DNA of 64,000 nucleotides from Alphaproteobacteria bacterium UBA6187 (GCA_002422795.1 DITJ01000104.1:15324-79323), one strand, 5' to 3'; shown: positions 3,315 through 63,443, numbered from the stretch's first letter. Notes: generated by a model not told the origin, from the letters alone. Translations and numbers: made by a program.

Positions 3315-3375
3315 TTTTTAGTTCTTAGTTGTTAGTTTAAGCTAAGAACTACAAACTAAGAACCAACAACTAAAA
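3315..3375. repeat. Heptad-word hairpin between map and radC
   Basis: The 5' arm is AGTTTTT AGTTCTT AGTTGTT AGTTTAA. The 3' arm is TAAGAAC TACAAAC TAAGAAC CAACAAC. Both have period 7 and are complementary. Confidence 0.7.
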
Positions 3376-3382
3376 TCTTAAC

Positions 3383-4090
3383 ATGACCGCACCAGAAACA
3401 AAATCGCCAGAACCAGAACAGCCCCATTATATAGGCCACAGGCAACGCCTCCGCGGCCGGTTCCTAAGCGCACCAAAAGGCAGCCTGCCTGATTACGAAC
3501 TTCTTGAAATTATGTTATTTGCAGCCAGCCCACGTATGGATGTGAAACCGCTGGCAAAGCAATTATTACTGCGGTTTGGCAGCCTTGCCGGCGTGATAAC
3601 CGCGCAAACGGATGAATTAAAAGAAATAAAAGGCATGAATGATATAGCCATAACCCAGTTAAAAGCTGTGCAGGATATGTCGGAGCGGCTTATCAAGCAG
3701 GAAATTACTGAAAAGCCTATAATCCAAAGCTGGAAGGCGCTGCTAGATTATTGTCGCGCCAGCATGGGCCATTTAAAGAAAGAGCAGTTCCGTTTGCTAT
3801 TCTTAAATAAAAAACACATGATTATATCTGATGAACTGCAAGAATATGGCACAGTAGACCAAACCCCTGTATATCCGCGTGAAGTTGTAAAACGCGCTTT
3901 GCAATTAGAAGCTTCAAGCATAATTATGGTGCATAACCACCCCAGTGGCGATGTGCGCCCTTCGAAAGAAGATATCCAGATTACCAAGCAAATAATGCAA
4001 GCCGCAGAGACAGTTGGAATCACTTTGCACGACCATGTAATAATTTCGTCAAAAAATCACTATTCTTTTAAGGCGCATGGGGTTATGTAG
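3383..4090 (+). CDS. radC: RadC-family JAB-domain protein
   Basis: 235 aa with N-terminal HhH-like region, C-terminal HNHPSG motif and ED..T..L block. Confidence 0.9.
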   Translation: MTAPETKSPEPEQPHYIGHRQRLRGRFLSAPKGSLPDYELLEIMLFAASPRMDVKPLAKQLLLRFGSLAGVITAQTDELKEIKGMNDIAITQLKAVQDMSERLIKQEITEKPIIQSWKALLDYCRASMGHLKKEQFRLLFLNKKHMIISDELQEYGTVDQTPVYPREVVKRALQLEASSIIMVHNHPSGDVRPSKEDIQITKQIMQAAETVGITLHDHVIISSKNHYSFKAHGVM

Positions 4091-4093
4091 TAA

Positions 4094-4186
4094 GTGGGTT
4101 ATAGGTAATGGGTGTTTGGTTCTAGGGAAGAGTTGTTAGCGAAGCTAACTCAAATACCCATCACCTAACACCCATCACCTAACACC
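4094..4186. repeat. Heptad-word hairpin between radC and engB
   Basis: The 5' arm is G/T-rich (gtgggttataggtaatgggtgtttggttctaggg). The 3' arm is ACCCATC ACCTAAC ACCCATC ACCTAAC. It shares the 14-mer cccatcacctaaca with the element at 63354-63443. Confidence 0.7.
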
Positions 4187-4197
4187 TGGGAAAATTT

Positions 4198-4824
4198 ATG
4201 GAATATACACCTGAACAAATCGAACAAGGCAAACATCTATTCAGTGGCGAATGCAATTTCATTGCAGGCTCTACGGCACTTTCAAACCTGCCGATAAGCT
4301 CTTTGCCGGAAATAGCTTTTGCTGGTGCTTCCAATGTTGGAAAATCCAGTATTGTGAATGCCTTAACAAGCCGCAGAACCCTTGCCCGCACATCTTCAAA
4401 CCCTGGGCATACCAAGCAGCTAAACTTTTTCAAGCTACGTGAAGATATGGTGCTGGTGGATTTGCCAGGCTATGGTTATGCACGAGCTGCAAAAACTTCT
4501 ATTGCTGAATGGACAGGCTTTACCAAAGATTATTTAAAGGGCCGCCCGAATTTAAAAAGGATATGCCTGCTGATAGATTCACGCCGCGACCTTAAACCTG
4601 GCGATGTTGAAATAATGAATTTAATGGATGAAGTCGCGGTTATTTATCAGGTTGTGCTGACAAAAATCGACAAGGTAAAAAAAGATGATGTAGAAAGAAT
4701 AATTTCTGCTATAAAGACAAGCGCAAAAAAGCATACTGCCATGCACCCAGAAATCATTGCTACAAGCAGCCGTGAAGGGTATGGAATAGAAGACTTGCGG
4801 GCAGAACTTGCAATGTTAAAATAA
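4198..4824 (+). CDS. engB: Ribosome-biogenesis GTPase EngB (YihA/YsxC)
   Basis: 208 aa with G1 [15 protein letters not shown] and TKIDK motifs. Confidence 0.9.
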
Positions 4825-4855
4825 ATACCAGGCAACCAGAACTAACGGCGATAAC

Positions 4856-5770
4856 ATGACCATAAAAAATATACCAGAAAAAAGAGCAACAAAAGAACAG
4901 ATTGAAAAAGCTGAGCTTCTTTCGGAAGCATTGCCTTATATGCGCCAGTTTGCAGGAGAAACTTTCGTAATAAAATACGGCGGCAGTGCAATGGGTGATA
5001 AAGAACTTTCAAAAACATTTGCACGCGATGTTGTGCTTTTGAAGCAAGTTGGAATAAACCCCATAATCGTTCATGGTGGTGGCCCGCAAATAAGCCAGAT
5101 GCTTAATAAGCTTAAAATACAAAGCTCATTTATTGATGGCCTCCGCGTTACCGATTTAGCCACTGTAGAAATTGTGGAGATGGTGCTGTGCGGTTCTATC
5201 AATAAACAGATAGTAACAGAAATAAATTCTGCTGGCGGCATGGCGATGGGCATATCTGGTAAGGACTGTAACCTTATTACGGCAAGAAAATTACGCCGCA
5301 CTAAAAAAGACCCGGATTCAAATATTGAACAGATACTTGACCTTGGCTTTGTTGGCGAACCTACTGATATTAACCCGGAAGCTTTGGTGTTTTTTGAAGA
5401 GTCAGATGTTATTCCTGTAATTGCGCCAATCGGTCTTGGTGAAGGCGGGGAAACATATAATATAAATGCAGATAGCGCAGCCGGTGCAATTGCATCATCC
5501 CTTGCCGCGCATAAGCTTATCATGCTTACCGATGTTCCTGGCGTGCTTGATAAAGACGGCAAGCTTATCAGCCGCTTAACATTTAATGAAGCGCAGAAGC
5601 TTATAAGGAATGGCACAATTTCAGGCGGAATGATACCAAAGGTGGAAACCTGTATGGATGCCATAAGCAATCACGCCGAAGCTGCCCATATACTAGATGG
5701 CAGGGTTCCCCATGTATTACTGCTTGAGCTGTTCACCGAGCATGGCACAGGCACTATGATTGTTCCTTAG
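4856..5770 (+). CDS. argB: Acetylglutamate kinase
   Basis: 304 aa. VIKYGGSAM and VHGGGPQI are typical amino-acid-kinase family blocks of ArgB. Confidence 0.93.
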
Positions 5771-5875
5771 GATCTTTATTTATTTGGCAGGCCACGAGCT
5801 ATTTCTGGCCTGCCCCTTTATTATATTCCAGCTAAATCATATAGACTTCTCCATACGCGCCCATATAATTTATAT

Positions 5876-6058
5876 TATAGCGTTTCCGCTTTTCATTTCT
5901 ACGTCGTCATTCTTCGGACTCACAAAATTAGCGAACCTTCGATGTGATGAAATATAAGTAAACTTCATTTCATCACATCTTGGTTTCACCTAGGTTTACT
6001 AGGCTAAAATTTTGTTCACCTCGAATTCCTAGTAGAAATGAAAAGCGGAAACGCTATA
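5876..6058. repeat. 183-bp palindromic element with perfect 27-bp terminal inverted repeats
   Basis: tatagcgtttccgcttttcatttctac (5876-5902) is the exact reverse complement of 6032-6058. There is an inner hairpin gatgtgatgaaat...atttcatcacatc. A diverged half copy lies at 51192-51264. Confidence 0.85.
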
Positions 6059-6080
6059 TAACCTGATATGCGAGGTAAAT

Positions 6081-6938: not shown

Positions 6939-6943
6939 ATATT

Positions 6944-17145: not shown

Positions 17146-17146
17146 A

Positions 17147-21958: not shown

Positions 21959-22059
21959 CGTGTCATTGCGAGGCGCGAAGCGCCGTGGCAATCCAGAAAT
22001 ATAACACACCATATTTTTCTTTATTTCTGGATCGCCACGCCTTACGGCTCGCGATGACG
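21959..22059. repeat. Palindromic repeat of the gtcattgcgag...ctcgcaatgac family
   Basis: cgtgtcattgcgaggcgcgaagcgccgtggcaatccagaaat ... atttctggatcgccacgccttacggctcgcgatgacg. Other copies are at 56310-56417, 33152-33178 (half) and a degenerate one at 30833-30858. Confidence 0.85.
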
Positions 22060-35728: not shown

Positions 35729-35811
35729 TAAAACCGTGTATATAAATAAACAATAATAAGAATAAAATATATCTTATATTATTTAAGAGAATAGAAAATT
35801 AGGAATTAAAA

Positions 35812-36839: not shown

Positions 36840-37826
36840 ATGAAAAAAGCTGTAATATTATTTAACCTTGGTGGCCCTGATAGTCTTGATGCGGTTGAAC
36901 CTTTTTTATTCAACCTGTTCAATGATAAAAATATCATAACCATACCAAATCCCATGCGGTTTTTTCTGGCGAAACTTATCTCCGGTAAAAGAGCGCCTAT
37001 CGCTAAGGAAATTTATAAAAATATTGGCAATAAATCCCCGATATTAGAAGAAACTGAAAAGCAGGCAGTGGCTTTGGAAAAAGCTTTAAATTCCATCACT
37101 AATCACCAATCACCAATCACCTACAAAACTTTTATATCAATGCGTTACTGGCATCCTTTTTCATACGAAACTATTGAAAAGGTAAAAGAATTTAACCCTG
37201 ATGAAATTATCCTTCTGCCGCTTTATCCGCAATTTTCAACCACAACAACAAAATCATCTTATGATGACTGGCATAAAATATCTAAGAAAAATGGATTAAA
37301 AATTCCTGTTAAAACTATATGCGGATATCATTTGGATGAAGATTTTATTACTGCGCACTCTAATATTATTAAAAAATCCTACGAAGAAATAGGTAATACA
37401 AAAACCAGGATTTTATTTTCTGCACACGGATTACCTGAAAAAATAATTAAAAAAGGCGATCCTTACCAAAAGCAAATAGAAGAAACAGCTGCTGCAATCG
37501 TAGCTAAATTATCTATAGAAAACCTTGATTTTGTAGTTTGTTACCAATCACGTGTTGGTAGGTTAAAATGGATAGACCCCAGCACAGAAGATGAAATAAA
37601 ACGCGCAGGTGTTGATTCTTTGGAAATTATTGTAGTTCCTATTGCTTTTGTATCTGAGCATTCAGAAACTTTAGTGGAACTTGATATTGAATATAAGCAT
37701 CTTGCGAAAGAATCTGGGGTAAAAAATTATTACCGAGTTCCTACACTTGGTGTGGATGATAATTTTATAAAAACACTGGTAAATGTTTGTATAAATACCG
37801 AAGAATTTAAATGTAATTGCTATTAA
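36840..37826 (+). CDS. hemH: Ferrochelatase
   Basis: 328 aa with [15 protein letters not shown] and SAHGLPE blocks. Confidence 0.93.
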
Positions 37827-45444: not shown

Positions 45445-45687
45445 TGGTGGAGAGATTACCCTAGTAAGCTAGTAGTGCAGAAATTAAATTTGTAGTAATT
45501 TTACTTTAAAATTCTCTATTATTTCATTTGTGCAGGTGCGCTAGTGTTCGCTATAGTGTTGTTTTGATAATTAATTGGTATTATAGTATTTCCCATTTTC
45601 AATAATGATGCGTCAATCATCATCTCATGTAGCTCACCTACACATCGACTCGATTTCCTATCATTATTGAAAAGCGAAAACACTATA

Positions 45688-46674
45688 TTATATAACTTTA
45701 ATAGAATCCTTAAACTTCATATATTGCGTCCTTTCATAAATCTTTACCCAATCTTTAACCATCTTCTGTGATGAATAATTTTTAAGGACATATTCCTGGC
45801 TGAGTTGCAAATAATGGCTTCGCTCTTCAAAAGAGCGTAACTTATTTATCAATTCTACAATGCCCGAATTTGATGTAAAAAGATAATTTTCAAGACCGCA
45901 ATTCGTTAAAAGCCTTTGATAAGCCGGAGTTTTACTTGCTATTACAGGAACGCCCCGGTTTATAGCAAGAACCGCCTTATTTTCTGACTTACAATAAGTG
46001 TTAACATCAAAATCAGTGGGAACATGACTTAATACACATGCATCAAAGGTTTGCAGCAATGCGGGAAATGTTTCTGGGGTATATTGGTGAATTATACAAT
46101 TTTGTACTTTGCCGTAATGCTTGTTTTTGGTAACAATATGATATTCAATTTCTTTTTCTAAATGTAAGGTAGTTAGTGTGTGTTCGTGTGCTATCATGGA
46201 CTTTTGATAAGAATCCGGATACCCAAACCACACAATTTTTAAAGGCTTTTTATTGTCTGTAGGCTTTTTAAATGAATTGGTAAAGCCAAAATCAATCGGG
46301 TCTAAGAGAACTTCAACCGAACGGTTTGTAAATAGTTGTACAACATCCTTCATTTCCGGGGTTGGCAGTAAAAGAACATCCACAAGCTCTGACCATCGTT
46401 TTAATGACGGAATCAATTTATTGCTGATATCTGGAATAAAAAGCATAATAACGGCATGTTGTGCGCGCTTCTGCAATAAGGATACAAGTCTTGGGTTCGT
46501 ATCAAGATCAATCTTTAAGCCGTTAATCAATATTCCAGATACTTTTTCATTGCTTTCTTGTAAACGACAAAAATTAAAGCCTGCAGGTTTTTGAGCAATT
46601 AATGGATTAAATTTCACGCGATGAACTACGCCATCAGGGTAGGGACTAAGGATTTCAATATTGTTTTTAAGCAT
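45688..46674 (-). CDS. Hypothetical protein, possibly a GT-B-type glycosyltransferase
   Basis: 328 aa. The C-terminal half (KIVWFGYPDS..., NRGVPVIASKTPAYQRLL) resembles a GT-B sugar-donor domain. The call is weak. Confidence 0.35.
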   Translation of the reverse strand: MLKNNIEILSPYPDGVVHRVKFNPLIAQKPAGFNFCRLQESNEKVSGILINGLKIDLDTNPRLVSLLQKRAQHAVIMLFIPDISNKLIPSLKRWSELVDVLLLPTPEMKDVVQLFTNRSVEVLLDPIDFGFTNSFKKPTDNKKPLKIVWFGYPDSYQKSMIAHEHTLTTLHLEKEIEYHIVTKNKHYGKVQNCIIHQYTPETFPALLQTFDACVLSHVPTDFDVNTYCKSENKAVLAINRGVPVIASKTPAYQRLLTNCGLENYLFTSNSGIVELINKLRSFEERSHYLQLSQEYVLKNYSSQKMVKDWVKIYERTQYMKFKDSIKVI

Positions 46675-46879: not shown

Positions 46880-48778
46880 ATGAAATATGATGTTATAGTT
46901 ATTGGCGGCGGCCATGCAGGATGTGAGGCCGCTGCGGCTTCTGCCCGGACGGGTGCAAAAACTATGCTTGCCACATTAAAGCCTGAGAATCTCGGTGAGA
47001 TGTCTTGCAATCCCGCAATCGGTGGAGTGGCAAAAGGAACGCTAGTTAGAGAAATTGACGCATTAGACGGTGTAATGGGGCGCGTTATAGATAAAGCCGG
47101 CATCCATTTTCGCATGCTTAATGCCAGTAAGGGCCCGGCTGTTTGGGGGCCGCGCGCACAAGCAGACCGCAAATTATACAAAAAAGCTATGCAGGAGATC
47201 CTGCCTGAAATTTCCAATCTTGATATAAAAATCACTTCTATTGAAAATATCATCCTTGATAAAAACAATGCGGTTGCTGGAGTTGAAACATCAACTGGCG
47301 AAGTTATAAATTGCAAAGCTGTTGTGCTTACTACAGGTACGTTCTTGCGTGGCCTTATTCACATGGGGGAAGTTAAAATCCCAGCAGGCAGAGTAGGGGA
47401 GCAGCCGTCAATAGGCTTATCAGATACATTGCAAAGATTTAATTTCAATCTTGGGCGCCTTAAAACGGGCACGCCTCCAAGGCTGGATGGCAGGACAATA
47501 GATTGGTCGGGCTTAGAAAAACAACCAACAGATAATCCACAGCAGCCGTTTTCTTATCTCACTGACAAAATTACCACTCCACAAATAGATTGCTACATCA
47601 CCAAAACCACACTGGCAACGCGTGACTTAATACAAGCGAATGTGCATCGCTCACCAATGTACTCAGGGCAGATATCCAGCATTGGGCCAAGATATTGCCC
47701 TTCAATTGAAGATAAAATTGTAAGATTTGCAGATAAACTAACCCACCAGATATTCCTTGAGCCGGAAGGGTTGGATGATGATACGGTTTATCCAAATGGC
47801 ATTTCAACGTCACTTCCAGAAGAGGTGCAAATCGAAATATTAAAAACGATTCCGGGCTTAGAAAATACCAAAATGTTCCGGCCTGGCTATGCAATAGAAT
47901 ATGATTTTGTTGATCCGCGTGAATTACGAGCAACATTAGAAACAAAAAAAATTCCTGGCTTGTTTCTTGCCGGGCAAATTAACGGAACCACTGGTTATGA
48001 AGAGGCTGGCGGGCAGGGGATAGTTGCTGGCATAAATGCCGCAAGACTTGCTGGTAATGGCGTTGCTGATTTCATATTGGATAGATCTGAAGCCTATATT
48101 GGCGTGATGATTGATGATTTAATAACGCTTGGCACATCAGAGCCTTATCGTATGTTTACCTCAAGGGCTGAATACCGCCTTAGTTTGCGCAGCGACAATG
48201 CGGATTTGCGCCTTACACAAAAAGGCATTGATGCGGGATGTATATCTTCTATAAGAACCGAGGCATTTAGTAAAAAAGAGCGGCTTCTAACTGAAGCAAA
48301 AAACAAAATGCTATCTGTGAATATTTCACCCAATGAGGCGGAAAAATCTGGCGTTTTTATAAATAAAGATGGTGTGAAGCGCAGTGCCTTGGAGCTTCTG
48401 GCGATGAATAATATAGGCTTTGATGGCGTAAGTAAAATTTGGCCGGAATTTAAGGACCTTCCTGCTGATATTATTCAGCAGCTCTCCATTGAGGCGGTTT
48501 ATTCTGTATATTTAGAAAAACAGCAGGCCGATATTGTTACTTTCCGCAAAGATGAAGAGGTTCATATACCTGAAGATTTTGATTATGATTCGCCCTCAAT
48601 AAGCCTTTCAAATGAATCCAGGGTAAAATTCAAGAAAGCTTTGCCACATACTATTGGTGCGGCAGCACGAATTCCGGGGATTACTCCGGCGGCTGTTACC
48701 TCTTTGTTAGTGGCGATTAAGAAGCGCAAAACAATAAGGTCGCATAGCAATGCAATGTTTCACGTGAAACACCCATAA
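46880..48778 (+). CDS. mnmG: tRNA uridine-5-carboxymethylaminomethyl modification enzyme MnmG (GidA)
   Basis: 632 aa with [16 protein letters not shown] and NPAIGG blocks, and full-length similarity to GidA. Confidence 0.96.
48756..48771. promoter_or_regulatory. parS site inside the last codons of mnmG
   Basis: Exact TGTTTCACGTGAAACA, encoding MFHVKH at the MnmG C-terminus. Confidence 0.85.
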
Positions 48779-48798
48779 ATTTATAATCTGATCTTTTC

Positions 48799-49416
48799 AT
48801 GACACAATTAAATATTCTGAAATCCATAACTGGAAATTCTAATTTCTTACAGGATAAAATCACTAGTTTGCAGGATTTCTCGGAGCTGCTTCTAAAGTGG
48901 AACCAGAAAATTAACCTGGTGAGTAAGAAAATTACTGCGGAAGAGTTATGGCAGAGGCATATATTAGATTCGGCTCAATTATTAAAATACATTCCCGGCC
49001 AAAGTAAAATAGTTGATTTTGGCAGTGGGGCCGGGTTCCCGGCCATTATATTGGCGCTTTTAAGTGATGATGAAATCACATTAGTAGAAAGTGACCAGCG
49101 TAAATGTGCTTTTATGCAGGAAGCTAAGGCAAAATTTAATTTGAATATAAATGTTATTTGCGCGCGCATTGAAGATGTAAAACCATTTGATGTGGATGTT
49201 ATAACCTCACGGGCATTGGCCCCATTACAGAATTTACTGGAATATTCTTACCCTTTCTACAAGAATGATAATTATATGCTTTTCTTAAAGGGGCAGAATG
49301 TGTTAGAAGAAATAAAGGAAGCATCAATATATTGGGATTTTACCCATGAGCTATTCCCTGATGCCGTAAATAAAGAAGGTGGCGTGTTAAAAATTTCTAA
49401 TTTAAAGAGGCTATAA
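48799..49416 (+). CDS. rsmG: 16S rRNA m7G527 methyltransferase RsmG (GidB)
   Basis: 205 aa with DFGSGAGFPAI as the SAM motif, in the canonical position after mnmG. Confidence 0.92.
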   Translation: MTQLNILKSITGNSNFLQDKITSLQDFSELLLKWNQKINLVSKKITAEELWQRHILDSAQLLKYIPGQSKIVDFGSGAGFPAIILALLSDDEITLVESDQRKCAFMQEAKAKFNLNINVICARIEDVKPFDVDVITSRALAPLQNLLEYSYPFYKNDNYMLFLKGQNVLEEIKEASIYWDFTHELFPDAVNKEGGVLKISNLKRL

Positions 49417-50222
49417 TGACATCTAACCTTGCAAAAGATAACACCAAAATAATGGCATTGGTTAACCAGAAAGGTGGGGTGGGGAAGACGACGACGGCTG
49501 TAAACCTCGCAACCGCCCTTTCTGCAACCAGAAAAAAAGTTTTACTTATAGATTTAGATCCACAAGGCAATGCTAGCACCGGTCTTGGAATTGAAGGCAA
49601 GCTACGTAAGAATAACAGCATTTATGAAGTTTTGGTAGGTTTAAGAAACATTGAAGACGCGGTGATAAAAACAAAAATTCCTGGCTTAGATATAGTACCA
49701 GCAAGCGTGGTGCTTTCTGCCGCTGAAATTGAGCTGGTAGGAGTTGAATCTAGGGAGTTTGTACTCAAATCTTTATTAAACGGCCTATCTAAAAAATATG
49801 ATTACATACTTATAGATTGCCCACCATCATTGGGGCTGCTTACTTTAAATGCCTTGGTTGCCTCTAATTCAGTGATGATCCCCCTGCAATGTGAATTTTT
49901 TGCGCTAGAGGGGCTTAGCCATTTATTAAAAACTGTGGAATTAGTAAAAAAGAAGCTCAATCCGGCACTTTCTATCCATGGAATTGTACTTACCATGTAT
50001 GATAAACGCAATAAATTGACAGAACAGGTAGAGCTTGATGTAAGAAAACATCTGGGAGACGATGTTTACAAAACAGTTATTCCAAGAAATATAAAAATTT
50101 CAGAAGCGCCGTCACACGGACAGCCAGCAATTATTTATGATTATAAATCGGCTGGTTCAATGGCGTATTTGCACTTAGCGAAAGAAATGCTGCAAAGAGA
50201 AAAGAGGGCGGTTGCCGTTTAA
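49416..50222 (+). CDS. parA: Chromosome partitioning ATPase ParA
   Basis: Deviant Walker A NQKGGVGKTTT. The ATG overlaps the rsmG stop. Confidence 0.94.
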   Translation: MTSNLAKDNTKIMALVNQKGGVGKTTTAVNLATALSATRKKVLLIDLDPQGNASTGLGIEGKLRKNNSIYEVLVGLRNIEDAVIKTKIPGLDIVPASVVLSAAEIELVGVESREFVLKSLLNGLSKKYDYILIDCPPSLGLLTLNALVASNSVMIPLQCEFFALEGLSHLLKTVELVKKKLNPALSIHGIVLTMYDKRNKLTEQVELDVRKHLGDDVYKTVIPRNIKISEAPSHGQPAIIYDYKSAGSMAYLHLAKEMLQREKRAVAV

Positions 50223-50232
50223 TATTGCAAAA

Positions 50233-50248
50233 TGTTTCACGTGAAACA
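50233..50248. promoter_or_regulatory. parS site between parA and parB
   Basis: Exact TGTTTCACGTGAAACA. Confidence 0.85.
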
Positions 50249-50277
50249 TATATTTATTTAAAATAAGGAAAAGCATA

Positions 50278-51153
50278 ATGAAAATATCAAAACAAGCACT
50301 AGGTAAAGGACTTTCCGCATTAATCTCGACTGATGATGATGACTTTCAAACAGCAGAAAGATTGCAGCCACTGGAGATGCCTTTAAATTTATTGGTGGCT
50401 GGGAAATCGCAGCCAAGGGGGTATTTTGAAGAGAGTAGCTTGCAGGAGCTTGCTGAATCTATTAAGAAAAATGGAGTTATTCAGCCCATTTTGGTGAGGA
50501 AATTAAATGATATAAGCTATGAAATAATTGCTGGAGAGCGTCGTTTCCGCGCTTCAAAACTGGCCGGATTACAGACCATGCCTGTAATTATAAAAGAATT
50601 AGATAACCGGCAAGCATTGGAATTAGCCCTTATAGAAAATATCCAAAGAGAAAACCTTACTGCAATTGAAGAAGCTGAGGGGTATAAACGCCTACAGGAA
50701 GAATTTAACTACACGCAAGAGCAATTAGGTAATGTTTTAGGAAAAAGCCGTAGCCATGTAGCAAATATGCTGCGTTTATTAACCCTGCCGCAATCAATAA
50801 AAGATATGTTAAATTCCGGGTTGATTTCTATGGGGCATGCCAGGGTATTGGTGGGGGTGGAGGGTCCACAAGCATTAGCTGAAAGAATAGTTAATGAAGG
50901 GCTAAGTGTGCGTGATGCTGAAAAGTTTGCCAGCGGTAGTATGCATAGTCAAGTTACAGCAAAAGAGCGTCAACCGAGTCAGAAAAGAAATAACTCTACC
51001 GCATCTAGCGCGCAAAAGGATGAGGATTTATTGCTTATAGAAAGATCTTTATCAGATTTACTTGGTATGAAGATTTCTATTGAGGAAGATCGTGTTGTGC
51101 TTTACTACAACAATCTTACTGAACTAGATAAGATATTGCAAAGGATAGGTTAA
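50278..51153 (+). CDS. parB: Chromosome partitioning protein ParB
   Basis: 291 aa with the GERRFRA box and an HTH region (QEQLGNVLGKSRSHVANMLRLL). Confidence 0.94.
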   Translation: MKISKQALGKGLSALISTDDDDFQTAERLQPLEMPLNLLVAGKSQPRGYFEESSLQELAESIKKNGVIQPILVRKLNDISYEIIAGERRFRASKLAGLQTMPVIIKELDNRQALELALIENIQRENLTAIEEAEGYKRLQEEFNYTQEQLGNVLGKSRSHVANMLRLLTLPQSIKDMLNSGLISMGHARVLVGVEGPQALAERIVNEGLSVRDAEKFASGSMHSQVTAKERQPSQKRNNSTASSAQKDEDLLLIERSLSDLLGMKISIEEDRVVLYYNNLTELDKILQRIG

Positions 51154-51352: not shown

Positions 51353-54300
51353 ATGACAACAGCACAGCTTCAAGCATCAGACCCGGCATATTCGGTATGG
51401 GTGGCGGCATCTGCCGGAACGGGAAAAACCACCGTGCTTACCTCACGTGTGCTGCGCCTGCTGCTTAATAATACCAACCCGGGGAAAATTCTGTGCCTAA
51501 CCTACACAAAGGCAGGTGCTGCGGAAATGGAATGCCGCATTAAAGCCAGATTATGCCGCTGGGTAACATTGCCGGAAAATGAGCTTATCGTAGAATTAAC
51601 GAAGCTTACCACTGAAATTCCAAGCGCAGATACAATAAAGCTCGCCCGCAAATTATTCCTTGAAACGCTGGATACGCCTGACGGGATTAAAATCCAGACC
51701 ATCCACTCATTCTGCCAGGGATTAATGCGCCGTTTTCCGCTTGAGGCGGGGATTGTGCCGCATTTTAAGGTTATGGACGATAAAACCTCAAGAGAATTAT
51801 TAAAAGAAGCACGCTTAAAGCTCCTTTCTGATTCAGATATTTATACGGCAGAAATAAAAGCCTCCATTACAAATATTTTCAGGCGAATTCGCGAAGGCAC
51901 GTTTTCAGAAGTAATTGAAGGTATAATAAGTGACCGTGGTAAACTGGGCAAGGCAATCGCCCAATCTGGTGGGGTAGAGGGGCTAAAAAAAGCAATATTC
52001 GGATTGCTTGAAGTGGATGAGGGGCAAGATGAATATGCCGTCCTTAAAAACGCCATGCAGGAGGCAAATTTTAACAGGAAAGAATTGCATGCAACAGCTA
52101 TTGGGCTTTTAAATGAAAAAGGCGTGACTTTTATAGAGCGCGGAAAAATTATATGTAACTGGCTGGAGCAGGACGAAAAAGGCAGGCTGGAAAATTTCCA
52201 CTCATATAAACTTGCATATCTTACTAAAGAAGAGGCGCCAAGGGCGGCATTGCTTCCTGCAAAAACCAATATACCGCCTGAACCGATAGACTTTGAAAAA
52301 GAGCGTATATGCAGGCTGATTAGAGCCATAAAAAGAACCAGGCTGGCGCTTCTTTCCAGTAGCATGGTAGATATTGCCTGCTCGCTCTTGGCATTATACG
52401 ATATAGAAAAATCCGGCAAGGCATATCTTGATTATAACGACCTTATCACAAAAGCCGAAAACCTGCTTTCTGGCACAGATATTGCACCATGGGTGCTTTA
52501 TAAACTAGATGGCGGCATAGACCACTTGCTGCTCGATGAAGCGCAGGATACCAGCCTGGCACAGTGGCATATCATAGATTCCTTATGCTCGGAATTTTTT
52601 ACAGGCAGTGGCGCGCGCGATGTGGAGCGGACAATTTTCGTGGTAGGAGATGAAAAGCAATCAATATTCAGCTTCCAGGGGGCGGCTCCGCATATATTCA
52701 ATAAAATGCGCTATAAATTCCAGGAGCGCGCCGAGCAGGCAGGCAAGCAATGGCTGAATGTAAGGCTGGATGAATCTTTCCGCTCTGCGCCTGTGGTGTT
52801 GCGGGCGGTGGATGCGGTATCGCAGGGATTGGGGATTAGGACTTGGGGATTAGGGAATCATAATAATCTGGAATCAACTTCCTTTAATATTAACGCGGCT
52901 TCCTCGCCACCTCCCAATCCCCAATCCCCAATCCCCAACTTACATATTCCCCACCATAAAACCCTGCATGGCAAAGTGGAAATATGGCCTTTAATCGAAC
53001 GGCAACAAGAAGAAGAGCAAAGTGCCGGCTGGGTGATGCCGCTGGAATATAAGGATAAACAGAACCCCCCGAAAATTCTTGCTGAAAAAATTGCCAGCAC
53101 CATAAAGAAGTGGCTTGATAATGGCCGCATAATTGAAGCAACGGGGCAGAAAGTGCGTGCAGGCGATATAATTATATTGCTGCGCAAAAGAACCAACATG
53201 GCGGATAATATTATCTCCAGTTTGAAAAGCCGCAATGTTGCCGTGGCAGGGCATGATAGGCTTATAATAACAGAGCATATTGCGGTTATGGATTTAATGG
53301 CGTTGGGTAACTTCCTGTTGCTGCCCGAAGATAGTCTGTCGCTCGCCTGCGTTTTAAAATCACCCTTAATCGGCTTTTCGGAAGAAGATTTATTTCAAGT
53401 TGCGTATGGAAGGGATAAAAAAAGCCTATGGCAGGCTTTGAAAGAGCGCGCAAAAGATGCGCAAAACCCGCCGCATTTCCAGCATGCAGTGGAGTATCTT
53501 TCCAATCTGCTGAATAAGGTTGATTATTTTACTCCATTTAAGCTTTATTGTTATATATTAGAGGCTATCGGCGGCAGGAAAAAGCTGGTGCAGCGCCTGG
53601 GCGAGGAAATAAATGATCCCGTGGATGAATTCCTTTCTTTGAGCCTTGAATTTGAAAAATCCCATGCCCCTTCCTTGCAGGGTTTTTTAAACTGGCTGGA
53701 ATCCGGCAAATCAGAAATAAAACGCGATATGGAACAAAGTGGCACAGATGCTGTAAGGGTGATGACAGTGCATGGCTCTAAGGGGCTAGAAGCGCCTATA
53801 GTCATAATGCCTGATACCACTACCGTACCCGAAACGAAAATGAAAATTTTCTGGCATGAGGATGATAACGCAAACATACTTCTCTGGCCGGGCGGTTCGC
53901 ATAACGAGGAAGAATTCTGCGATGCTATAAAAGAAAACAAAAAAATGGAAGAAAAGCAGGAATATTACCGCCTGCTTTATGTAGCCATGACCCGCGCTAA
54001 ATTTGAGCTATATGTAGCAGGTTCGGTAGGTAAAAAAAGCAGGCCGGATTGGTGCTGGTATGATGTTATATATTCCGCACTTGATAATATTAGACTTCCA
54101 CGGAAACAGGGTTTTGGGGAGGCAGATGCGCGAAGCGAGTATCACAGAACCGTAAGCGTACAGGGCGTACGTGCGGATTCGAGAAACGCAGCGACAAGCG
54201 AGCTGCCCACCAAAACCCTGTTTCCGTGGAAGTCTATTGCGGAAAAAGATGCAGATGGCATCTTACGCTTAAGCGGCGGCAATCCTGCGATTATAAAAGA

Positions 54301-54949
54301 ATCGCAAATAAAGCAGGCCGCTGTTTTTGCCCCGCTGCCTGCATATTTATTGAATAAGCCTGAAAGTGAGCCAAACCCAACGCGCCCCCTTACCCCATCA
54401 AAAATTGAAGGGGAGCAAGGCGCGGAGGTTTATTCGCCGTCCAGCCGGGCAAAGCTTATGGAAGGCAAGATTATCCATAGCCTGCTGGAATTCCTGCCTG
54501 ATATATTTGAGGCAAACCGCATGGATAAAGGGCTTGAATTTTTAAGAAAGAAGTTTCCCACCGCTGAAAATGTGGAGATAGAAAGCATACTGGCGAACTT
54601 GCTTGCAATAATGTGCAGGGACGATCTAAAGCATGTATTTAGCGAAACATCCCGCGCCGAAGTGCCGGTTATAGGAATCGCTGGCGGCATGGTTATATCG
54701 GGCCGTATCGACAGGCTAGGCATCACAGATGATAAGGTAATAATAGTTGATTACAAAACCGGGCGCATACCGCCTAAATCAATTTCAGCTATAAATAGGG
54801 CTTATATTAAGCAGATGTCTGTTTATAAGGATATCATTAAGGAAATTTACCCTGCCAAGCAAGTGGAATGTTACCTTATATGGACAGAAGGTGCGGTAGT
54901 TTTCAAATTACCTGAAGAAACCCTTGGTAAACAGGCGAGTGTAGTGTAA
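51353..54949 (+). CDS. addA: Double-strand-break repair helicase-nuclease AddA (UvrD-like helicase plus C-terminal RecB-type nuclease)
   Basis: 1198 aa with Walker A AASAGTGKTTVL, LLLDEAQDTS, and the C-terminal nuclease motif GRIDRLG...IIVDYKTG. It is followed by trxA, as in many alphaproteobacteria. It contains two palindromic inserts. Confidence 0.9.
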   Translation: MTTAQLQASDPAYSVWVAASAGTGKTTVLTSRVLRLLLNNTNPGKILCLTYTKAGAAEMECRIKARLCRWVTLPENELIVELTKLTTEIPSADTIKLARKLFLETLDTPDGIKIQTIHSFCQGLMRRFPLEAGIVPHFKVMDDKTSRELLKEARLKLLSDSDIYTAEIKASITNIFRRIREGTFSEVIEGIISDRGKLGKAIAQSGGVEGLKKAIFGLLEVDEGQDEYAVLKNAMQEANFNRKELHATAIGLLNEKGVTFIERGKIICNWLEQDEKGRLENFHSYKLAYLTKEEAPRAALLPAKTNIPPEPIDFEKERICRLIRAIKRTRLALLSSSMVDIACSLLALYDIEKSGKAYLDYNDLITKAENLLSGTDIAPWVLYKLDGGIDHLLLDEAQDTSLAQWHIIDSLCSEFFTGSGARDVERTIFVVGDEKQSIFSFQGAAPHIFNKMRYKFQERAEQAGKQWLNVRLDESFRSAPVVLRAVDAVSQGLGIRTWGLGNHNNLESTSFNINAASSPPPNPQSPIPNLHIPHHKTLHGKVEIWPLIERQQEEEQSAGWVMPLEYKDKQNPPKILAEKIASTIKKWLDNGRIIEATGQKVRAGDIIILLRKRTNMADNIISSLKSRNVAVAGHDRLIITEHIAVMDLMALGNFLLLPEDSLSLACVLKSPLIGFSEEDLFQVAYGRDKKSLWQALKERAKDAQNPPHFQHAVEYLSNLLNKVDYFTPFKLYCYILEAIGGRKKLVQRLGEEINDPVDEFLSLSLEFEKSHAPSLQGFLNWLESGKSEIKRDMEQSGTDAVRVMTVHGSKGLEAPIVIMPDTTTVPETKMKIFWHEDDNANILLWPGGSHNEEEFCDAIKENKKMEEKQEYYRLLYVAMTRAKFELYVAGSVGKKSRPDWCWYDVIYSALDNIRLPRKQGFGEADARSEYHRTVSVQGVRADSRNAATSELPTKTLFPWKSIAEKDADGILRLSGGNPAIIKESQIKQAAVFAPLPAYLLNKPESEPNPTRPLTPSKIEGEQGAEVYSPSSRAKLMEGKIIHSLLEFLPDIFEANRMDKGLEFLRKKFPTAENVEIESILANLLAIMCRDDLKHVFSETSRAEVPVIGIAGGMVISGRIDRLGITDDKVIIVDYKTGRIPPKSISAINRAYIKQMSVYKDIIKEIYPAKQVECYLIWTEGAVVFKLPEETLGKQASVV
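52825..52938. repeat. Heptad-word hairpin embedded in-frame in addA
   Basis: The 5' arm is GGATTGG GGATTAG GACTTGG GGATTAG GGAAT. The 3' arm is CCTCCCA ATCCCCA ATCCCCA ATCCCCA AC. It is translated as ...GLGIRTWGLGNHNNLESTSFNINAASSPPPNPQSPIPN... The boundaries are approximate. Confidence 0.7.
54095..54232. repeat. 138-bp palindromic element embedded in-frame in addA
   Basis: Perfect 23-bp inverted termini cttccacggaaacagggttttgg (54095-54117) and ccaaaaccctgtttccgtggaag (54210-54232). It spans exactly 46 codons, starts on a codon boundary, and encodes LPRKQGFGEADARSEYHRTVSVQGVRADSRNAATSELPTKTLFPWK. Confidence 0.85.
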
Positions 54950-56309: not shown

Positions 56310-56417
56310 CTGTCATTGCGAGCGAAGCGTGGCAATCTATGCGGTATAAAAACAAACTGTGTAGTTGCTTGTAACCTCGTATGGATTGCCACGCCACTTC
56401 GTGGCTCGCAATGACGG
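56310..56417. repeat. Palindromic repeat of the gtcattgcgag...ctcgcaatgac family
   Basis: ctgtcattgcgagcgaagcgtggcaatc ... gattgccacgccacttcgtggctcgcaatgacgg. Confidence 0.85.
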
Positions 56418-56428
56418 AGGCAAAAATT

Positions 56429-57286
56429 CTACAAACAGCTTTTCAACCCCTCCCTATAAGTCGGATATTTAAGCTGCACACCTAATTCCTGTTTGATGCG
56501 TTCATTGCTAACGCGCCTATTGCTTGCCCAGAAACTTTTTGCCATTTCTGAGAGTTCCGCCTGCTCAAATTCCACAAGTGGCGGAGGGGTTATTCCAAGT
56601 AGCTTTGCCGCATATTCAACCACCTGGGCCTGCGGTGCAGGCTCGTCATCCGCGCAGTTATATACACGCCACGGGTTTGGTTTATTTATAGAGCCTCGCA
56701 AGATTCCCGCAATATCTTCAACATGTATACGCGAAAACACCTGCCCTTCCTTATGCACTCTGTGCGCTTTTCCCGCTTTTAATTCATCAATTGCACTACG
56801 ACCTTTGCCGTAAATTCCAGAAAGGCGGAATATATGCACAGGCAAGCCGCAGTCGAGCCACGCCTCTTCCGCATCGGCTCGCCTCTGGTTGCGCCCATGA
56901 GGCGGATTTACAGGCGTTTCTTCACTGACCCATGCACCATTATGATCGCCATATACACCAGTGGTAGAAAGATAACCAAACCATTCCAGGTTTGGGAGTG
57001 ATTTTAGGTCAGCCAGGTGGTGGTGGAGTACAGGGTCTAGGGGCTGGGGGCTGGAGGCTGGGGGAGCCGAATGCAAAATATGCGTTACTCCTCCCAAATC
57101 CCAAACTTCCTGAAGGGGTAAATCATTATCAAATATATAAGCGGTGATGCCCATGGCGCGCAGGCGTTCGCATTTATCAGATGTGCGGCAAGTGCCAGAA
57201 ACGCGCCAGCCCTCGAGCAGCAGTTGCTTTGCTAAAATTAAAGCAGAATATCCGAGGCCGAAGCAGAAGAGGTGGGGCATGAGCAA
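56429..57286 (-). CDS. NAD(P)-binding SDR/epimerase-family protein
   Basis: 285 aa with the Rossmann-like N-terminus CFGLGYSALILAKQLLLEGWRVSGTCR and YLSTTGVYGD. It carries a G-rich heptad tract at 57033-57106. Confidence 0.75.
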   Translation of the reverse strand: MLMPHLFCFGLGYSALILAKQLLLEGWRVSGTCRTSDKCERLRAMGITAYIFDNDLPLQEVWDLGGVTHILHSAPPASSPQPLDPVLHHHLADLKSLPNLEWFGYLSTTGVYGDHNGAWVSEETPVNPPHGRNQRRADAEEAWLDCGLPVHIFRLSGIYGKGRSAIDELKAGKAHRVHKEGQVFSRIHVEDIAGILRGSINKPNPWRVYNCADDEPAPQAQVVEYAAKLLGITPPPLVEFEQAELSEMAKSFWASNRRVSNERIKQELGVQLKYPTYREGLKSCL

Positions 57287-58297: not shown

Positions 58298-58613
58298 TTA
58301 AGCCGCCAGCTTTTTCTTTAATAACTCATTAAGCACCTGCGGATTAACCTTGCCGCCCGAAGCTTTCATAACTTGCCCCACAAAGAAGCCAAATAATTTA
58401 TCCTTACCGCTTCTATATTCAGCAACTTTATCCTGGTTCGCTGCCATTATTTCTTCGATAACTTTCTCGATTGTGCCAGTATCAGTAACCAGTTTTAATC
58501 CCTGTTATTCAACAATCTGAGCGGCAGATTTGCCGGTTTCAATATGGTATAGAATACATCTTTGGCCATTTTGCTGGAGATAGTATTATCTGTGATAAGG
58601 CTCAGCAATCCAT
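58298..58613 (-). pseudogene. Decayed duplicate of the gatB 3' end
   Basis: About 315 bp align with 59931-60246 at roughly nine of ten positions by eye. The fragment keeps its own stop (…LKKKLAA*) but has an internal stop or frameshift near 58490. The track ORF 58495-58698 is a chimera that ends in GatB-like [19 protein letters not shown]. Confidence 0.8.
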
Positions 58614-58721
58614 CCTTTTCAAGAGAACTAACCGCCATTTTACTAAAGAAGAAATTCTGACAAGCAGTTATTTCTTTATATGGAACATGGCTTGCCATTT
58701 TCTTTTATACCCATGATAAAT

Positions 58722-59915: not shown

Positions 59916-59930
59916 ATTTGCCTTAATAAA

Positions 59931-61388
59931 CTATGAGGCTAGTTTTTTCTTTAACAAATCATTAAGTACCTGCGGATTAACTTTGCCGCCCGAAGCTTTC
60001 ATGGCTTGACCTACAAAGAAGCCGAATAATTTATCCTTACCGCTTCTATATTCATCAACCTTATCCTGGTTAGCAGCCATTATTTCTTCGATGATTTTCT
60101 CGATTGCGCCAGTATCGGTAACCTGCTTTAAGCCCTGCTCTTCAACAATCTGGCTCGCTGATTTGCCGGTTTCAAACATAGTATCGAATACATCTTTAGC
60201 CATTTTGCCGGAGATAGTATTATCTGTGATAAGGCTCAGCAATCCACCTAATTCCTTTGCGGAAACTGGTGAGTTTTCAATATTCTCCCCATTTTTATTA
60301 AGGCGCGCAAATAATTCGGCAGTAATCCAGTTTGCTGCCATTTTAGCATCATGGCCTTTTGCAACTTCTTCAAAATATTTCGCAGTTTCTTTATCAGCCA
60401 CCAGCACACTTGCGTCATATTTAGAAAGCCCCATCGCGTTTATATAGCGCTCTTTCTTATCATCAGGAAGTTCTGGCAAATCTTTGCGTAATTTATTGAT
60501 AAATTCTTCGGAAATTTCCAGAGGCAGAAGGTCTGGGTCTGGGAAATAGCGGTAATCATGCGCATCTTCTTTGGTTCGCATGGTGCGGGTTTCGCATTTG
60601 TTAGCATCAAACAGCCTGGTTTCCTGGGCAATTGTACCGCCACTTTCATAGGCTTCAACATGGCGGTTGGCTTCATAAGTTATTGCCTGCTGCATAAAGC
60701 GCATAGAGTTCAGGTTTTTTATTTCGCAACGCGTGCGCAGCTCAGTGCTACCAACCGGGCGCACCGAAACATTAGCATCGCAGCGCATAGAACCTTTTTC
60801 CATATCACCATCGCATGTGCCAAGATAACGCATGATAGTGCGCAGCTTCTTCAAATATTCCATGGCCTCTTCTGCTGATCGCATATCCGGCTTGGATACA
60901 ATTTCCATTAGCGCAATACCAGCGCGGTTTAGATCGATAAATGAAGAATCTGGTGATTGGTCATGCATCGATTTTCCGGCATCCTGTTCAAGATGGATAC
61001 GTTCCACACCAATCGAACGTGAAGTGCCATCCTTCATATCAATTATAATAGTGCCTTCGCCAACGATAGGATCGGAAAACTGGCTGATCTGGTAGCCTTG
61101 CGGCAAATCGGCATAGAAATAATTTTTACGGTCGAATACCGAATGGTGGTTGATTTTTGCTTTAAGGGCAAGGCCGCTGCGCACTGCTTGCTTCACGCAT
61201 TCTGCGTTTAAAACCGGCAGCATTCCAGGCATAGCGGCATCTACCAGGGATACCTGGCTATTAGGTTCACCACCGAACAAAGTTGATGCACCGGAAAATA
61301 ATTTTGATTTAGAGGTTATTTGCGCATGAACCTCAAGCCCGATTACAATTTCCCAGTTGCCTGTGTTGCCTTTTATTATTTGTGTCAT
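59931..61388 (-). CDS. gatB: Asp/Glu-tRNA amidotransferase subunit B
   Basis: 485 aa with [12 protein letters not shown] at the N-terminus, full-length GatB. Confidence 0.96.
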
Positions 61389-61399
61389 TTTCTTTCCTT

Positions 61400-61479
61400 A
61401 GAGAATGTAAGAATATAAGAGTGTGAGAGTGTAAGTAAAATATTATTAACACTTACATTCTTACACTCTTACATTCTAC
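61400..61479. repeat. Octad-word hairpin between gatA and gatB
   Basis: The 5' arm is AATGTAAG AATATAAG AGTGTGAG AGTGTAAG and has no C. The 3' arm is CTTACATT CTTACACT CTTACATT and has no G. Confidence 0.75.
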
Positions 61480-62946
61480 TTATACTAACCCTTTAAACCC
61501 AGCCGCCTTTTCAACCACAGCGGCAGTTTTAAATACCGTTTCTTCATCAAATGCCTTGCCGATTATTTGCAGGCCAAGCGGTGTTCCTTCTGATGAAAAC
61601 CCAGCCGGAACTGATATTCCTGGAAGCCCAGCAAGGCTTGCCGGAACGGTGAATACGTCGTTCAAATACATTGTAACCGGGTCCATTTTCTCGCCCAGTG
61701 CAAATGCTGCTGAAGGCGTGGTTGGTGCAAGTATTACATCAACTTTTTCAAAGGCGCTTGCAAAATCCCTTGATATTAAAGTGCGCACACGCTGGGCTTT
61801 TTTATAATATGCATCGTAATATCCGGCAGAAAGTACATATGTACCTATCATAATACGGCGCTTTACTTCTGTGCCGAACCCTGCCGCGCGGGTAAGCTCA
61901 TATAAATCATCTAGAGAACCGCCTTTTTCTTCAACTCGAAGACCATAACGCACGCCATCAAAGCGCGCTAAATTTGCAGAAGCTTCCGCAGGTGCAATAA
62001 TATAATAAGTAGGTAGTGCGTACTTAGTATGCGGCAGGCTGATATCTACAATTTTTGCACCGGCATCTTTAAGCCACTCGGCACCTTGTCTCCATAATGC
62101 ATCTATTTCGGATGGCATGCCATCCTGGCGGTATTCTTTAGGAATTCCCACACGAAGGCCCTTTATATTCAAATCGCCAAGAGCGCGTGAGAATTGCGGT
62201 ATTTCTACCGGGGCAGAGGTTGAATCTTTTTCATCATGACCGCTAATGGCTTCTAACATTATTGCGGCATCTTTTACCGAGCGTGTAAATACACCCGCCT
62301 GATCAAGTGAGCTTGCAAAGGCAATCATGCCATAACGTGAACACATGCCATAAGTTGGCTTCATTCCTACAATACCACAAAAAGCCGCTGGCTGGCGCAC
62401 TGAACCACCTGTATCGCTACCTAGCGCACCAAGGCATAAACCCGCCGCAACCGCGGCCGCAGAACCGCCAGATGAACCGCCCGGCACTAAATCGGTATTA
62501 TCATTTTTTCTTTTCCATGGATTTTTTACTTCGCCATAATAACTGCTGGCGTTAGATGAACCCATTGCAAGTTCATCCATGTTGGTTTTACCAAGCATTA
62601 TCGCGCCTGCGCCAAATAATTTGCTGGTAACTGTGGATTCATAAGGCGGCACAAAACCATCTAGTATATGCGAACATGATGTAGTGCGAACATCCTTCGT
62701 GCAGAATAAATCCTTTACTCCAACAGGTATACCTTCCATGGCGCCTGCTTTGCCTTGGCTACGCCTTTTATCGGATTCATTGGCAGCTTTTTGCGCAATT
62801 TCGAATGTATCTACTATATATGCATTAAGATTGCGCTGTTTTTCAATCTCGCTGATATGCGCATCCACAAGCTCGCGGCTGGTGAATTCACCATTTGCAA
62901 GGCCTTCAAGGGCGGAAGAGATTGTTAGTTTTGTTAGTTCTGTCAT
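61480..62946 (-). CDS. gatA: Glu-tRNA(Gln) amidotransferase subunit A
   Basis: 488 aa with the amidase signature [14 protein letters not shown]. Confidence 0.96.
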
Positions 62947-62950
62947 AAGA

Positions 62951-63041
62951 AGAGTCCAGAGTTCGGAGTCCAGAGTTCAGTATTTAAGAGTTTAGGAAGG
63001 GGTCTGCTTCACGGGACTCTGAATTCTGAACTCTGAACTCT
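62951..63041. repeat. Heptad-word hairpin between gatC and gatA
   Basis: The 5' arm is GAGTCCA GAGTTCG GAGTCCA GAGTTCA. The 3' arm is GACTCTG AATTCTG AACTCTG AACTCT. Confidence 0.75.
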
Positions 63042-63045
63042 ATTG

Positions 63046-63333
63046 TTATTCTACCACTTTCGGCACTTCAAAACACCCAAAGGCGCTTTTAGGTGCATTC
63101 TTTAATATATCGGCTTGTTTGTTACCATCCGTAACCACATCAGGGCGTAAAGAAAGGCCTATGCTGGAAACAGATGACATTTGCGGAACTTTATCAGTAT
63201 TTACTTCTTGCAGCATTTCAATCCAGTTAAATATGCTGGAGATTTCCTGGCCATAGCGCACCACTTCTTCATCAGAAAGCCGGATGCGGGCAAGTTTAGC
63301 AATTTTTTTTACCTGTGCGGTTGTTAATGACAT
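63046..63333 (-). CDS. gatC: Asp/Glu-tRNA amidotransferase subunit C
   Basis: 95 aa from MSLTTAQVKKIAKLARIRLSDEE (ATG at 63333). The 124-aa track ORF runs into the upstream hairpin element. Confidence 0.9.
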   Translation of the reverse strand: MSLTTAQVKKIAKLARIRLSDEEVVRYGQEISSIFNWIEMLQEVNTDKVPQMSSVSSIGLSLRPDVVTDGNKQADILKNAPKSAFGCFEVPKVVE

Positions 63334-63353
63334 TTGTATTCCTTGAAAGATAA

Positions 63354-63443
63354 GGTGATGGGTGATAGGTAATAGGTGACTGGGAGTTAAGATAAAGCAA
63401 AGCTTTATCTTCCCCATCACCTAACATCTATCACCCAGTACCC
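63354..63443. repeat. Heptad-word hairpin between divergent gatC and ruvX
   Basis: The 5' arm is GGTGATG GGTGATA GGTAATA GGTGACT GGGAG. The central stem is aagataaag / ctttatctt. The 3' arm is CCCCATC ACCTAAC ATCTATC ACCCAGT. Confidence 0.75.

Follow-up and report, generated by a model that had tools for sequence, protein, structure and literature searches.

Hairpins with arms of tandem 7–8-nt units and a constant G-first polarity in an uncultured alphaproteobacterial clade

The window analyzed here is a 64,000-nt stretch of DNA from Alphaproteobacteria bacterium UBA6187 (GCA_002422795.1, DITJ01000104.1:15324-79323), an uncultured alphaproteobacterium with a G+C content of about 40%. It contains hairpins whose 5′ arm is a tandem array of a 7- or 8-nt unit and whose 3′ arm is the complementary array, and in every one of them the 5′ arm holds more G than C. 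We consider it moderately probable that these hairpins form a clade-specific superfamily of non-autonomous palindromic repeats resembling REPINs, i.e., dimers of repetitive extragenic palindromic (REP) sequences, with arms that keep slipping after insertion. As such, the elements are an unusual variant of known selfish DNA and not a new system. Arms made of tagged tandem units of 7–8 nt are an unusual design among small bacterial palindromic repeats, and several families of this design occur across the clade.

The original prediction, made from the sequence alone, described hairpins with arms of tandem 7–8-nt units. Eight such sites hold up in the window, with three to five imperfect units per arm, and Tandem Repeats Finder and an inverted-repeat finder each recover the sites that had been cited. 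Two of the looser cases listed with them are not members: 33761-33807 is a plain 10-bp hairpin plus a distant direct repeat, and 45535-45687 belongs to a different family, shared with 5876-6058, that resembles MITEs (miniature inverted-repeat transposable elements). The sites are listed below, with a strand where one was assigned; L089 is a contig that extends the window, and family letters are explained further on.

2366-2449: period-8 hairpin, like family C, units GTGTAACA/GCATAACA, in the divergent cinA/map promoter region
3312-3378: period-7 hairpin of family D, TAGTTNT x4, occupying the map-radC spacer; fold z −6.2
4094-4186: period-7 hairpin of family A, GGTGATN/GGTGTTA, occupying the radC-engB spacer
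35349-35440: period-7 hairpin of family B, GTAGTTN/ATGGTTT, abutting the start codon of a kinase/pyrophosphorylase gene (minus strand)
52825-52938, plus strand: period-7 hairpin of family F, GGGGATT, in frame within addA (51353-54949)
61402-61477: period-8 hairpin of family C, AGWRTGTA, occupying the gatA-gatB spacer; fold z −9.9
62951-63041: period-7 hairpin of family E, GAGTCCA/GAGTTCR, occupying the gatC-gatA spacer
63354-63442: period-7 hairpin of family A, between the divergent gatC and ruvX
57020-57110: probable decayed member, judged by eye only, inside open reading frame (ORF) 56429-57286 (minus strand)
37095-37121, plus strand: solo A/C-rich array, ATCACCA x3.9, inside hemH, without an intact 5′ partner
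L089 3681-3776: extra hairpin member in the hom-glpX spacer
L089 1524-1612: extra hairpin member, in frame within alaS

The element at 2366-2449 has arms of 28 nt and a spacer of 28 nt, with seven G and four C in its 5′ arm and a fold z-score of −4.0. The probable decayed member consists of a GGGGCTG array followed by CCCAAAT units, and the complementarity of its arms is now poor. The word of the solo array in hemH, ATCACCA, is the complement of the family A word GGTGATT.

The hairpins are not an assembly artefact. The window lies within a 142-kb metagenome contig (ENA ERZ27315062 k141_1091743), and Logan contigs (run SRR5323116) agree with it at every base along stretches of 3,784 and 5,951 nt, several elements included. 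Within the elements, the two independent assemblies do not differ. Nor are the hairpins expected by chance. With 9,294 nt added at the 5′ side (L089) and 3,387 nt at the 3′ side (L088), the extended window measures 76.7 kb. When it was scanned for arms of at least 18 nt, complementarity of at least 75% and loops of at most 70 nt, 12 hairpins were found, as against a mean of 0.55 and a maximum of 2 over 20 shuffles that preserved dinucleotides. Arms of period 7 or 8 are present in nine of the 12 and in no hairpin of the shuffles. Fold z-scores of the elements against composition-matched shuffles run from −4 to −10.

The copies had been described as largely different in sequence and built from fast-changing words. 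The former is overstated, and the words are not arbitrary, nor do they change fast: the copies sort into about seven families (A–G), which coexist in this genome and have a unit template in common, N-T-T-A-G-K-K. For the template, 11 arrays, one per family, were phased against each other, and the phasing was repeated with all arrays. The G is invariant, and an A precedes it in 70% of the units. The information content is 3.54 bits, compared to 2.87 ± 0.20 when the unit columns are permuted, and none of 200 such null sets reaches 3.54. Within a family, the likeness may include the whole element. Segments 4088-4197 and 63340-63450, both of family A, are 77% identical in register and have the same loop apex, AGCRAAGCT; the two elements each form an inner mini-hairpin, with apexes AGCGAAGCT at 4094-4186 and AGCAAAGCT at 63354-63442. 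The 14-mer cccatcacctaaca was correctly said to be common to 4094-4186 and 63354-63443. Similarly, the arms of 35345-35442 recur in the hom-glpX element (compared from L089 3677), the two being paralogues. Central spacers are family-specific, and some have a mini-hairpin of their own.

The outer feet of the elements are often tagged. TAG is present at 20 of 40 outer feet against a background of 14%, and GTAG at 7 of 40 against 2.9% (p ~1e-4), in a manner that is neither universal nor, for either tag, independent of the repeated word. The element at 61402-61477, for example, has GTAG at its foot on the minus strand. In several cases the tag doubles as a stop codon. The map stop codon is the first TAG of 3312-3378, the hom stop codon is the TAG of the first unit of the hom-glpX element, and an element also donates a stop codon in contig L012. 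The radC stop, TAG at 4088-4090, is part of a GTAG that precedes the 5′ arm of 4094-4186 by 7 nt.

Evidence for movement comes from related genomes. The loci compared were L083, L085, L087 and L171, all from related lineages; periodic hairpins were also found in the unrelated contigs L012 and L068. The family C words of the gatA-gatB element recur at L171 1175-1335, in the non-orthologous priA-transaldolase spacer. The family D arms of 3312-3378 align in register with arms at L083 6561 (ruvX/gatC spacer) and at L087 1157 (epimerase-ubiA spacer). Searches of all loci with words allowing three mismatches were too noisy for use. The presence of the same families at other sites in related genomes suggests copying to new sites by a trans-acting machinery.

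A loop in the AddA protein makes the same point. In the window, the (GGGGATT)n element is translated in a variable loop of AddA as GLGIRTWGLG...PPPNPQSPIPN, with the conserved motifs SFRS..VD.V and H.A.H..GK.E.WP on either side. A hairpin, each time with the G-rich arm 5′, is also present in this loop in three related lineages; it is missing from more distant homologues and from two clade members. The window and L083 addA elements are related (z 4.3). The L085 element, however, is of the family of the window alaS element (local score 26, z 12.9), and the L087 element is of family B (z 8.9 and 7.0 against two window copies). Thus, across four lineages one permissive loop has housed three families that all occur at other places too, which argues for repeated insertion and against drift. 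A first reading of this loop as in-place drift or co-variation of the words was dropped, as the L085 and L087 inserts match families elsewhere. Two cases speak for the gain of whole elements: the 22 residues of the alaS insert are missing in orthologues of 80% identity, and L083 lacks a gatA-gatB spacer. The elements account for odd low-complexity inserts, Gly-rich and then Pro-rich, in AddA and AlaRS, as well as for the "filled" operon spacers, a point of use in annotation. A second palindromic insertion in addA, at 54091-54236, has perfect 27-nt inverted repeats (TAGACTTCCACGGAAACAGGGTTTTGG) around a 92-nt core; this 147-nt insertion adds 49 in-frame residues, is absent from 11 of 11 aligned homologues, and behaves like the Rickettsia palindromic elements (RPEs).

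The elements are clade-specific. Their density is about one per 8 kb in the window and one to four per 15–23 kb in the related lineages, or about one per 8–20 kb over the clade. Apart from a duplicate of the L083 lineage, no elements were found in 1.26 Mb of other alphaproteobacterial metagenome loci, and 0.67 Mb of diverse gatA loci yielded two. The relatives at hand are not close ones: the closest public GatA proteins are 67–74% identical to that of the window, the closest AddA proteins 62–63% and the closest AlaRS proteins 80%, with nothing closer for AddA or AlaRS in the collections searched.

A different view is that the hairpins are simple-sequence repeats that arise and evolve in place, without mobility. 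Slippage would make the tandem 7–8-mers from locally seeded words, such as those of stop codons, and template switching would copy an array into its inverted partner and keep the two complementary. Template switching has a known role in the creation and upkeep of hairpins (PMC8794818), and the positions of the Xanthomonas arrays discussed below are kept between species (PMC4692102). In the elements themselves, perfect arrays occur in one arm only (52913-52938, 35359-35383 and 4156-4186; the one in 35349-35440 is ATGGTTT x3.6), the upstream stop codon often falls within the first unit, and each arm is more like its own partner than like the orthologous arm of a different genome. In the more distant L034, the orthologous gatC-gatA spacer contains a solo array, which points the same way. 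Such a process would not place the same families, with near-identical words and once the same loop apex, at non-orthologous sites within and between genomes, nor three families, each found elsewhere too, in one AddA loop. Large, family-specific spacers are not predicted by simple fold-back copying, and a unit template common to the families is unexpected if words are seeded locally. We therefore regard evolution in place as an unlikely explanation of the whole set. The one-arm perfect arrays are also what slippage after insertion would produce. The original prediction held that a simple mobile-element model could not explain the elements; the within-genome paralogues, the families at non-orthologous sites and the three families in the AddA loop speak against that claim.

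The most constant property of the elements is their polarity. The 5′ arm had been called G/T-rich, and this is clear in five of the eight window elements; in the other three, the G+T fraction of that arm is 0.40–0.59. When the claim is restated as an excess of G over C in the 5′ arm, it holds for 22 of 22 periodic hairpins (from the extended window, L083, L085, L087, L171, and the unrelated L012 and L068), so that the opposite polarity was indeed never seen. Summed over the predicted stems and read 5′ to 3′, G-C pairs number 98 against 17 C-G pairs, and T-A pairs 97 against 68 A-T pairs. Non-periodic palindromes of the same window have either polarity. It follows that the polarity belongs to this element class. 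That it is intrinsic, i.e., unchanged when an element is inverted, is also real. A general G-first bias of all hairpins is weak at best, as generic short hairpins from 80 diverse loci divide 54 to 37 (p = 0.09).

Several causes of the polarity were considered. Self-priming by folded-back G/T-rich strands is disfavored by the large, family-specific central spacers. The avoidance of exposed C-rich RNA, on which Rho would load, is disfavored because solo arrays in Xanthomonas are transcribed in both orientations (PMC4692102). Polar motifs like Chi or the FtsK-orienting polar sequences (KOPS) found no support here, and neither did the binding of spaced NAG triplets in the manner of HutP or TRAP. 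The elements as a whole might also be formers of G-quadruplexes, a property proposed for GGGAATC arrays in Xanthomonas and GGGGATT arrays in Nostoc. The addA element is (GGGGATT)n, the Nostoc word, with four G-tracts, and such arrays form quadruplexes in vitro (PMC4692102). Seven of nine arms, however, have one run of at least three G or none, and the addA element alone has four. Families B, C, D and E are unable to form quadruplexes, yet have the same architecture and polarity. Quadruplex formation thus cannot be what unites inverted heptamer arrays, and as the explanation of these elements it is highly improbable.

The comparison with REPs and bacterial interspersed mosaic elements (BIMEs) made in the original prediction is apt. 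Judged by shared features, the closest functional analogue is the REP dimer with GTAG outside (the "HH" dimer, or REPIN), which is mobilized by the REP-associated tyrosine transposases (RAYTs, TnpA-REP). REP dimers have GTAG on the outside and a 20–100-bp spacer, donate TAG, and have intragenic copies in repair and tRNA-synthetase genes; at one recB site, two Xanthomonas species have different REPs (PMC3733652). The elements described here share with them a size of about 70–110 bp and a layout of two inverted arms and a spacer that fold into one long hairpin (PMC3733652, PMC3116915). Both also have an outer 5′ TAG or GTAG on each strand (here, at part of the feet), several families per genome, and no target-site duplication (PMC3733652, PMC3116915, PMC8266576). 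Further points in common are the donation of TAG stops, in-frame copies in repair helicase-nucleases and tRNA synthetases, and different families at one recB-type site. Here, the spacers measure 14–75 nt, the tags are outside, and on either strand the tagged, G-rich array comes first (5′). What a REP-associated transposase recognizes is the single-stranded REP and not the complementary strand, with the AG of GTAG as the part on which it depends most (PMC8266576). An enzyme of this type would account for the need to have the tagged arm 5′ on either strand.

The likeness has limits. REP units are self-folding imperfect palindromes of 20–40 nt, whereas the arms here are tandem 7–8-nt arrays without self-folding. 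Unlike in REP dimers, exact GTAG is restricted to the 7 of 40 feet given above, and no RAYT was seen in the roughly one-tenth of the genome inspected. In addition, GTAG-type REPs are reported mainly from gammaproteobacteria, whereas the elements here are alphaproteobacterial.

In structure, the closest precedent is the set of convergent GGGAATC heptamer pairs of Xanthomonas. Each genome has 70–75 pairs of arrays in "convergent" inverted arrangement, discussed as formers of G-quadruplexes (PMC4692102). Tandem heptamers, their inversion and the 5′ position of the G-rich array on each strand are shared, the Xanthomonas polarity being taken from that paper's text; here, the arrays are convergent inverted pairs with the G-rich arm 5′ in all 22. 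Like the elements here, the GGGAATC arrays are mostly intergenic, lie near the upstream gene, keep their positions across species and occur as solo arrays too. In contrast to the one quadruplex-capable Xanthomonas word, there are about seven word families here, most without G-tracts, and an array with at least four G-tracts is found only in the addA element. In-frame genic copies and families at non-orthologous sites are documented here, unlike for the Xanthomonas pairs. A scan of viral contigs for (GGGAATC)3 gave three solo arrays and was uninformative.

Other small repeats resemble the elements in part. RPEs are likewise small alphaproteobacterial palindromes, in frame in essential genes and in spacers, a likeness of behavior only; they have long unique consensus sequences and no arms of tandem units. 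MITEs are likewise short, non-coding and dispersed in families with terminal inverted repeats. They differ in that the elements here lack a target-site duplication, as judged from the flanks of 20 elements, and that nearly the whole element is inverted repeat. To our knowledge, there is no full-length insertion sequence related to the elements. Solo heptamer arrays include the short tandemly repeated repetitive (STRR) sequences of cyanobacteria, TAACTGA in Beggiatoaceae (PMC4679880), and GGACCGG and MTYCTGA in Geobacter (PMC2700814). They too are many-copy tandem heptamers, intergenic and intragenic, with lineage-specific words. In contrast, they are mostly direct, with no inverted partner, and so have neither the hairpin architecture nor the polarity rule. 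The elements join two literatures that have been treated separately, that of heptameric simple-sequence repeats and that of REP/REPIN elements.

How a REPIN-like superfamily might give rise to these features can be outlined. An element comprises a 5′ arm of three to five tandem NTTAGKK units, a central spacer, and the reverse-complement array as its 3′ arm. The mobilizer would most likely be a strand-specific enzyme acting on single-stranded DNA, of the kind that moves REP dimers. The clues to such an enzyme are the outer 5′ TAG or GTAG, the lack of target-site duplication, the donation of TAG stops, and the copies that survive in frame within loops encoded by genes for repair and tRNA synthetases. 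Copies would persist only at sites tolerant of a hairpin, i.e., promoter regions, stop-to-start gaps of operons and protein surface loops. Once inserted, the arms would behave as simple-sequence repeats, and slippage would leave a perfect array in one arm only. The polarity would be the orientation of the tagged unit, so that the G-rich, C-poor arm is 5′ on both strands. Since inversion cannot alter it, every descendant in the superfamily would inherit the G-first orientation. A polarity that withstands inversion, together with the reiterated TAG unit, offers a handle for finding the enzyme that recognizes it.

Several observations weigh against the REPIN-like reading. No transposase or RAYT was found among the approximately 55 ORFs of the window or the genes called in about 220 kb from the clade, about one-tenth of a genome. 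Around 20 elements, there is neither a target-site duplication nor a motif that the flanks or targets have in common. The arms are C-depleted tandem arrays that are not self-palindromic (0 to −5.3 kcal/mol when folded alone), and so are not REP units. Two to three copies per family were seen, in partial genome sequence. Local processes also act, as seen in the solo array of L034 and in one-arm slippage. Finally, the same G-first rule is found in Xanthomonas and in a Syntrophaceae contig, which suggests a rule broader than descent within one superfamily. Both the mobilizing enzyme and the ultimate cause of this rule are inferred.

This last point raises the idea of a general strand-specific mechanism by which inverted arrays of tandem units are built in distant bacteria, and which underlies both the G-first polarity and the telomere-like (T)TAG(G/T)(G/T) unit. 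Its reach may include Xanthomonas, the Syntrophaceae contig and another alphaproteobacterial metagenome-assembled genome (MAG). In one possible version, a single-stranded-DNA enzyme would read reiterated TAG units instead of a folded REP; in another, repeats would be added from a template at the two 3′ ends that face a break, which would generate head-to-head arrays. We give such a mechanism little credence. If it were true, the elements would be a new class of mobile or repair-generated DNA, and not a REPIN variant.

Where the REPIN-like elements lie bears on what they do to their host. Five co-directional spacers are filled exactly, viz., hom-glpX, map-radC, radC-engB, gatC-gatA and gatA-gatB. 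Others lie in two divergent promoter regions, and AddA and AlaRS each include a translated, in-frame element. The occupation of every spacer of the gatCAB operon had been noted correctly. In L083, gatA and gatB overlap, with no spacer. An uncultured "Rickettsiales" MAG of 55% G+C (L034) has a solo TAGAGTT-type array at 3965-4000, in its gatC-gatA spacer directly after the gatC TAG stop and without an inverted partner; its units are of the same family as the hairpin in the window gatC-gatA spacer. Near the 2366-2449 hairpin, just downstream of it and upstream of map, there is a near-consensus sigma-70-type promoter at 2459-2486 (TTGATA, 16 nt, TATAAT; 11 of 12 matches).

These positions might reflect selection on RNA, with the hairpins serving as RNase III sites, as barriers to 3′ exonucleases, or as stop-to-start bridges that couple translation in operons. 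The exact filling of the co-directional spacers agrees with this, as does the occupation of some sites across deep divergence, and stems of 25–35 bp are of sufficient length for RNase III. The folding of the transcripts does not. Seven transcribed elements were folded as sense and antisense RNA (the hom-glpX element and those at 3312-3378, 4094-4186, 35349-35440, 52825-52938, 61402-61477 and 62951-63041). The two strands are about equal in folding, with the antisense fold more stable in six of the seven and G·U pairs rarer on the sense strand, so there is no sign of structure kept specifically in mRNA, and selection on sense RNA by way of G·U pairs is unsupported. The excess of stable antisense folds may reflect mutation bias or selection against over-stable mRNA hairpins, the sample being too small to tell the two apart. 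Moreover, the same elements lie in divergent promoter regions and within proteins, and the L083 arrangement indicates that the gatA-gatB spacer is dispensable in relatives. No terminator-like site with a T-tract was called at the elements in 2000-4500 or 61000-64000, where they lie inside operons, so the suggested role in termination is rejected. The whole window gave no Rfam match at or above the gathering score, and a transfer RNA scan of it returned nothing. Selection for an RNA function is therefore unlikely to be what keeps these elements. A role in mRNA processing is possible. The double-stranded RNA of an operon transcript could be a target of RNase III, and the hairpin would bring stop and start codons together; both are probably side effects.

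Other palindromes share the genome with these elements. A separate MITE-like family, at 5876-6058 and 45579-45690, has the terminal inverted repeats TATAG(C/T)(G/A)TTTCC.C.TTTCA; Logan contig L090 (5,957 nt) ends inside the first of these copies. Classical REP-type palindromes tagged with CGTC, (C/T)GTCATTGCGAG ... CGTGGCAATC ... and the inverse, form inverted dimers at 21961-22059 and 56311-56416. Singles lie near 30833 and 33167, and further examples are found at L083 6990-7020, L087 9440-9560 and L173 5924-6033. Palindromic repeats of at least three kinds are thus present in the genome. At 29272-29424, the spacer that follows a response-regulator gene contains a composite palindromic element with CCTCTCCCTCAAGGGAGAGG-type palindromes, in which a run of G-tracts (GAGGGAGAGGGTTAGGGTGAGGGAG) is followed by C-tracts, again G-first.

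Finally, the family B element at 35349-35440 adjoins an AT-rich region that resembles an origin of replication. This region, 35440-35810, is gene-free, contains several TTATCCACA-type DnaA boxes and lies directly upstream of hemE; it is probably the chromosomal replication origin. An Hda-like gene lies at 33812-34474, and gidA-gidB-parA-parB at 46880-51153.

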